Part shown: positions 33,527-33,868 of the stretch, one piece after another | Layout: each line of letters begins with the position of its first letter | Position numbering within the stretch: position 1 is the stretch's first letter | Origin: Octopus vulgaris | Taxonomy: Eukaryota | DNA length: 64,000 nucleotides | Assembly: GCA_951406725.2 (NCBI GenBank) | Contig: OX597815.1 | Span: 20,832,001-20,896,000, forward strand | Direction: 5' to 3' | Program-made: the position numbers and the translations under genes | Notes under the pieces: generated by a model | The model's input: the letters and a program-made list of their open reading frames with translations, nothing else | Told to the model about the DNA's origin: nothing | The model's database searches: none

Positions 33527-33868
33527 TAATAAATATTAGGGAATAAATCCAAATTTACAGGGAAAAATCAGACTTAGGATTGAATCCAATTTTATAGTAA
33601 AATATTATATAATATTATTAGAGACAAAACCACTATTTTGCAAATCAAACAAGGAAAGACATAAAAAATTTTAATATAAAGTAAATAAATCGCCACTACA
33701 ATTGTTTCCTGTCTTCAAATGACATTCATCAGGTGGATTTCATATCTTCTATTCAATTTTAAAGTTATTTACTTTATATTAAAATTTTTATGTATTGATT
33801 AAGTCTTTCCTTGTTTGATTTATTTCAAAATAGTGGTTTTTTACATACCGAACACTCTCTAATAATAA
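33527..33868. mobile_element. Foldback element with a central hammerhead, inside (TA)n
   Basis: Inverted arms about 33613-33688 and 33765-33867; (TA)n on both flanks. Confidence 0.8.
33693..33736 (-). ncRNA. Type-I minimal hammerhead ribozyme with canonical core
   Basis: Minus strand ccac-CTGATGA-aTGTCatttgaaGACAg-GAAA-CAATTG-TA-gtgg; GUA cleavage triplet, palindromic helix III. Confidence 0.8.

Follow-up and report, generated by a model that had tools for sequence, protein, structure and literature searches.

A fold-back element of about 340 bases lies at positions 33527-33868 of the window (the whole 64,000-nt stretch of Octopus vulgaris DNA analysed here), with a hammerhead ribozyme motif on the minus strand between its inverted arms. 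The questions raised by this locus are how the ribozyme came to lie there and what its mismatched closing pair signifies. The original prediction treated the hammerhead as cargo between the arms of a fold-back whose layout recurs independently in the window. We consider it very probable that the element is instead a dead, 5′-truncated insertion of a (TA)n-targeting Penelope-like retroelement (PLE), most likely of the Hydra clade, although for the clade label taken separately our confidence is only a little better than even. The parent element, its clade, the integration steps and any activity of the ribozyme are all matters that we infer.

A type I hammerhead motif with an A·G closing mismatch

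The features of the locus are collected in Table 1. Read on the minus strand, the motif runs in the order CCAC, CUGAUGA, A, UGUC, 7-nt loop, GACA, G, GAAA, CAAUUG, UA, GUGG. The canonical CUGAUGA/GAAA/GUA core, the 4-bp helix I, the 4-bp helix II and the mismatched A-G closing pair, all features that had been described before, were each recovered at 33736-33693. This segment has the CUGANGA / GAAA / NUH core and the helices I-III of a type I hammerhead; the paired 10.1-11.1 positions of that type, usually G-C, are replaced by A·G at 33725/33709.

Table 1. Features of the fold-back element and its hammerhead motif (positions in the window)
Feature	Positions	Strand	Remarks
(TA)n target, left	33503..33526		
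Long copy: 5′-truncated 3′ end of repeat family	33527..33768	minus	reads 33768 to 33527
One-sided tail, 79 nt, predicted stem-loop	33527..33605	minus	no partner in right arm
Left arm: 3′ region of long copy, down to short terminus at ~33606	33606..33688	minus	
Type I hammerhead motif	33736-33693	minus	descriptor match and family contigs; lies between inverted arms
Hammerhead helix I, 4 bp	CCAC 33736-33733 with GUGG 33696-33693	minus	
Hammerhead core CUGAUGA	33732-33726	minus	
Hammerhead A10.1; G11.1	33725; 33709	minus	A·G closing mismatch
Hammerhead helix II, 4 bp	UGUC 33724-33721 with GACA 33713-33710	minus	7-nt loop
Hammerhead GAAA	33708-33705	minus	
Palindromic helix III/loop ACAAUUGU	33705-33698	minus	8 nt; predicted pairing between two hammerheads
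GUA triplet	predicted cut after 33697	minus	
Putative 4-nt microhomology TTAT at inversion junction	33765..33768		run X8 contigs against window
Right arm: second copy of this 3′ end, shorter and inverted	~33765..33876	plus	without tail
(TA)n target, right	33870..33964		overlaps arm end

A hammerhead descriptor, which was composed after the motif had been seen and which tolerates the closing mismatch, matched only once in the whole window when both strands were scanned; any match was found in 3 of 200 dinucleotide-shuffled windows, and none in 20,000 shuffles of 33690-33770. The Rfam scan of the element gave no hammerhead model, its two matches at E up to 10 both being to MIR8562 and far below the gathering score. 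Over the window, no hammerhead was present among the 150 of 258 Rfam matches listed, which were to miRNA and snoRNA models below the gathering score.

Unequal arms, a one-sided tail and a (TA)n target

As described previously, the arms are inverted and sit inside (TA)n, which is present on both sides; ~33606-33688 and 33765-33876 are identical in 78 of 81 aligned columns. They are separated by four indels (10, 3, 14 and 1 nt), more than expected of a single recent event. The right arm is truncated just downstream of the hammerhead. At the other end, the one-sided tail, which was absent from the earlier description of the element, is predicted to fold into a stem-loop (-10.6 kcal/mol), and the fold-back as a whole has a fold z of -9.2. 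Because the right (TA)n tract overlaps the arm end, a target duplication is unreadable at this element.

Two side observations concern the tail and the flank. At position 33573, nearly all of the depth in related contigs has another letter than the copy in the window, and with this letter the predicted stem-loop of the tail has a Watson-Crick pair in place of a G·U wobble. Adjoining the right (TA)n tract is a 220-nt repeat (33964-34183) with an inverted copy 10 kb off at 43922-44151, also beside (TA)n (86% over 282 nt including the microsatellite); this is possibly another (TA)n-targeted family.

An abundant repeat family with two 3′ termini

The fold-back is a member of an animal repeat family that is abundant and has a hammerhead motif near one end. 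Parts of the element are present in 20 of 24 listed runs (4 organisms, 9 studies), and runs of only 35-51 million letters contain a fraction of 0.34 of its words, as expected for a high-copy repeat. Four hammerhead pattern scans returned 0 loci in viral contigs, metagenome contigs and prokaryote genomes, which is also expected for an animal repeat. Four runs were aligned to the element as contigs only (8164, 818, 418 and 144 contigs). No RNA run was present among the listed runs that contain the element; run X8, which is only guessed to be RNA, served for sequence variants and not for transcription.

Family contigs cover all of the long copy (33527-33768) in all four runs, with a depth that drops 5′-ward. 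In run X1 the depth was 3.3M at 33620-33643, 190k at 33680-33703, 63k across part of the hammerhead (33716-33727) and 6.5k upstream of it (33752-33763), contig depth not being copy number and the gradient being a mixture of truncation and subfamily divergence. Positions 33848-33870 were without contig cover in the four runs, a gap that is uninformative taken alone. There was no depth step at the predicted cut (33697/33696, in 12-nt bins), and no loose end at this site among those listed.

The contigs also define the ends of the family. In X1, 37 contigs have loose ends in (TA)n ahead of 33606, as do 4 contigs of X9, and 33527-33605 is covered by other contigs, some of which reach the arm as well. 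Two 3′ termini (33606 and ~33527), separated by 79 nt, therefore exist in the family. None of the 32 contig pieces listed spans at least 31 nt on each side of 33606. One contig of run X7 that aligned to the right arm extends upstream into the 3′ strand of the hammerhead, which identifies the right arm as the same end, truncated and in inverted orientation. Furthermore, two contigs of X8 run upstream past 33762 into other sequence (median 69 nt), and comparison of this continuation with the window gives a 4-nt overlap at the inversion.

Among 13 listed joints, 11 are head-to-head, with one side at 33572-33689 in the left arm or tail and the other in the right arm, and the ribozyme is skipped in all 11; one of the 13 changes strand, and two are short skips or are partly counted within the left side. 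The sides of these joints are only 21-34 nt long, the shorter ones measuring 21-28 nt, and such joints are unreliable in repeats. No unit-length head-to-tail joint was found among the joints listed, where the contig pieces listed are short. Since the arms are two copies of one 3′ end and the 11 joints leave the ribozyme out, the description of the hammerhead as cargo of a fold-back is not supported.

The A·G pair is the majority state of the family

The original prediction expected the family consensus to restore helix II as ATGTC...GACAT. This was not borne out: no alternative letter at 33725 or 33709 was listed at 10% or more in any of the four runs, and contigs identical to the window copy span the entire ribozyme (X9 record 32, 101 nt; X7 record 15, 63 nt at a depth of 200). 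Thus A10.1·G11.1 is the majority state of the family, and we rejected the idea of a decayed closing pair, there being nothing to repair. The single variant listed inside the ribozyme falls at the tolerant position 7, with a share of depth of ~4% in X1, 0% in X9, 10% in X7 and 21% in X8. One X8 contig carries a sister motif, in which CUGAAGA, U at 10.1 and a different loop are combined with a preserved core and unchanged 5′ strands in helices I and II. This pattern of sequence variation gives a weak sign that the ribozyme may be under selection in the family.

The A·G mismatch would be expected to lower hammerhead activity but not to exclude it, since natural U·U mismatches are known at the start of stem II (PMC3088659). 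The suggestion, made with the original prediction, of an assay on a tandem dimer fits the palindromic helix III. As a monomer, the hammerhead fold has -3.6 kcal/mol against a minimum of -5.6 kcal/mol, with a helix III probability of ~0.01. The duplex of the 8-nt palindrome (33698-33705) has -6.4 kcal/mol, and a double-hammerhead fold reaches -18.4 against a cofold minimum of -19.9 kcal/mol; a double hammerhead formed through the palindrome is therefore a plausible predicted fold for tandem copies. The helix I probability falls to 0.01-0.1 in longer sequence context, and for this reason the lone copy at 33736-33693 is predicted to be inactive.

A bolder reading, which seems to us doubtful although worth stating, is that a high-copy family has fixed the purine·purine mismatch A10.1·G11.1 in a selected hammerhead whose cleavage would require a dimer or the element's protein, and that the 79-nt tail would reflect two RT start sites twice as far apart as those reported in other PLEs. 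If this were true, the hammerhead consensus would have to be widened to take in this natural variant, and the tail of the family would offer a second system for testing tail formation. No description of the family or of the A·G closing variant was found in the literature searched, which lay outside Repbase, Dfam and most subscription papers; the family may already be present in some repeat library.

Origin of the fold-back

Penelope-like elements are described as 5′-truncated, with an adjacent inverted truncated copy, a tail of 30-40 bp that is present at one end, and microsatellites as targets (PMC8557442). The element resembles them in its truncation, its inverted copy, its one-sided tail, its (TA)n target and its hammerhead near the 3′ end. 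All structural tests for a PLE that were run came out in its favour, in a class assignment that rests on the structure of a remnant without an ORF: the arms and joints show a 5′-truncated copy with an adjacent inverted truncated one, the tail is at one end only (33527-33605; 79 nt versus the published 30-40), and the hammerhead lies in the terminal region of an interspersed, high-copy repeat. The (TA)n target together with a canonical hammerhead near the 3′ end also agrees with the Hydra clade, a combination that is not diagnostic, since other PLE clades share the bias towards microsatellite targets (PMC8557442). The search for an RT or GIY-YIG frame connected with the family gave nothing, with neither domain found by Pfam in 65 of the 220 candidate frames.

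These features are consistent with the following course of events. A Penelope-like endonuclease would have cut the (TA)n tract, and reverse transcription would have begun at either cut end, using two start sites on the RNA. Neither copy would have been completed, and the two would have been sealed head-to-head over the 4-nt microhomology, one of them ~240 nt long and including the hammerhead, the other stopping just before it. The ribozyme would then lie between the arms as the stretch that only the longer copy contains. The active form in the parent element may have been a double hammerhead formed on tandem transcripts, or one assisted by the element's protein.

We weighed three other explanations. 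In the most serious of these, which we regard as unlikely, the family would be a non-autonomous PLE derivative (solo pLTR-like or retrozyme-like) that never had an ORF and relied on a Penelope-like partner for mobilisation in trans; the fold-back would have formed in the same way. No ORF was seen, the depth in X1 falls ~500-fold within 130 nt, putative non-autonomous PLEs have been described (PMC8557442), and animal retrozymes are reported to derive from pLTRs and to be often monomers (10.64898/2026.07.22.740005). However, strong 5′ truncation is normal in autonomous PLEs (PMC8557442), the sequence continues upstream of 33762 in the two X8 contigs, and the listed joints include none that would link such units head to tail. 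It is very improbable that the locus is a DNA element of the fold-back or MITE-like type, in which a hammerhead would be carried as cargo between fixed inverted arms. The appeal of this reading lies in the long inverted arms in a TA context, the strong hairpin and a second element of the same outline in the window (at 50596), but the arms end unequally, in another copy the hammerhead is followed immediately by arm sequence, the breakpoints of the 11 other joints vary, and the family depth is graded and not flat. We rejected this reading as largely refuted, the locus having neither fixed terminal repeats nor a fixed interior. Least credible of all is a chance match in AT-rich spacer DNA, for which the short helices, the lack of an Rfam hammerhead match and a hammerhead fold above the energy minimum might speak, and which we rejected on the shuffles, the conservation of the motif across the family with change at position 7, and a layout like that of published PLE hammerheads (PMC4209133, PMC8557442).

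A truncated PLE insertion thus remains the preferred reading. It is a known kind of insertion in a new family, with two small oddities, the A·G pair and the long tail. Fold-backs of this kind will probably be mistaken for MITEs or miRNA-like hairpins, and their value as footprints of Penelope-like integration is mostly for annotation. Penelope-like DNA makes up 6.83% of one octopus assembly (PMC13282606 supplement), so such fold-backs should be common in such genomes. The A·G variant and the long tail provide modest test material, which does not settle the role of PLE hammerheads (PMC8557442, PMC11167929).

Other repeats in the window

The window is AT-rich (GC 0.28-0.41), with many microsatellites and interspersed repeats, and ARAGORN called no tRNA in it. 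The fold-back at 50596-50998, said to be unrelated in sequence to the present element, is indeed so, the best match being 18 AT-rich bases (E 0.005). Its 139-nt arms are 96% alike, its tail (41 nt) is again one-sided, and its hammerhead, on the minus strand at 50844, has the core UUGAUAA, which corresponds to the U3-A8 covariant described in PMC4209133. A 15-nt direct repeat (50581-50595 / 50995-51009), a target duplication partly overlapping the arm, takes the place of a (TA)n target. This element fits the same PLE insertion model and likely belongs to another PLE clade, because it is not in (TA)n. The layout was thought to have arisen independently in the two elements; a single integration mechanism, already known, accounts best for both (PMC8557442, PMC3846280). 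A third fold-back (59151-59470) has arms of ~150 nt that differ by a 16-nt indel and enclose a short spacer, and no hammerhead was found in it even with a relaxed core; it is possibly a PLE fold-back truncated below its ribozyme.

Several other repeats were noted. Inverted repeats of 370 nt (91%) at 38517-39828 surround a 182-aa frame (39004-39552, minus strand) without a Pfam match, which we take to resemble the N-terminus of R4/Dong retroelements. The broken frames at 30251-31072, again without a Pfam match, presumably resemble an R4/Dong-type non-LTR element at its RT and endonuclease end. At 9591-10037, a retroviral-type aspartyl protease fragment (PF00077, E 0.00037) likely marks a decayed LTR element. 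Two 388-nt copies that are 97% alike (24172-24559 and 36311-36698) are likely a young SINE; their start looks tRNA-like by eye, and ARAGORN found no tRNA in them. Finally, one SINE-like repeat is present in many copies (14817-17315, 20733-20976, 37274-37928, 44726-44963, 50348-50520 and others), some with internal tandem duplications.

Comparison with known systems

Elements of the Hydra clade encode a protein with RWK and DKT motifs and a CxCX5C linker, without CCHH (PMC8557442), and 26 of the 27 Hydra-clade families listed in the supplement of that paper are (TA)n-targeted. When we counted the entries of its motif table, a 10.1/11.1 mismatch was present in 15 of 25 families (14 T·T, 1 T·C; two of the 15 share one motif), and the remainder have G·T (2), G-C (7) or an extra G plus A-T (1). 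None of these 25 hammerheads has A·G. The mismatch often precedes a tgcc/ggca helix, to which the tgtc/gaca helix of the element is similar. Like Penelope-1 to -8_HM, Penelope-13_HM and Hydra-1_Obim, the element has (TA)n as its target and carries its hammerhead near the 3′ end; it also shares with Hydra-clade hammerheads a short helix I, a 4-bp helix II that often follows a mismatch, and a palindromic helix III, and with Penelope-13_HM a 5′-truncated inverted copy (PMC8557442). Unlike them, it has an A·G closing mismatch and a ~79-nt tail, and it is known without an ORF. We rejected identity with the octopus Hydra-1_Obim, since the hammerhead and 3′ end given for that element differ when compared by eye. 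Six short motifs of the element had no matches in the supplement of PMC8557442, and its motifs had none in an O. vulgaris supplement of 5,371 characters, a text too short to be a repeat library.

PLE repeats have been found to carry dimer-type hammerheads and opposite-strand pairs, with low activity in vitro (PMC4209133). As in metazoan PLE hammerheads, the motif is of type I with a 4-bp helix I, a palindromic helix III and a predicted need for a dimer, and it is a single motif of a truncated copy, as most of them are. In contrast, it is without the G10.1-C11.1 pair called highly conserved in PLE hammerheads, and its helix II has 4 bp versus 7-8 (PMC4209133). Non-LTR retrozymes (10.64898/2026.07.22.740005) are likewise short, non-coding and PLE-related with a type I hammerhead, but they consist of tandem head-to-tail units, each with a hammerhead, whereas the element is head-to-head with a single motif at its locus.

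The closest parallels for the architecture are found in insertions of Adineta Pen2a (PMC3846280) and of the anole element PAc (PMC11167929). In the former study, inverted pLTRs are shorter than the direct ones and overlap them, with microhomology at 5′ junctions. In vitro, PAc cuts both strands, and two internal RT start sites explain its tail; its hammerhead, which is protein-assisted and dispensable for insertion, overlaps the ORF start, unlike that of the element. Pen2a and PAc insertions also differ from the element in their target duplications or AT-rich targets and their 30-40-nt tails. They share with it the head-to-head copies, the shorter inverted copy, the small junction overlap and the tail at one end (PMC3846280, PMC11167929).
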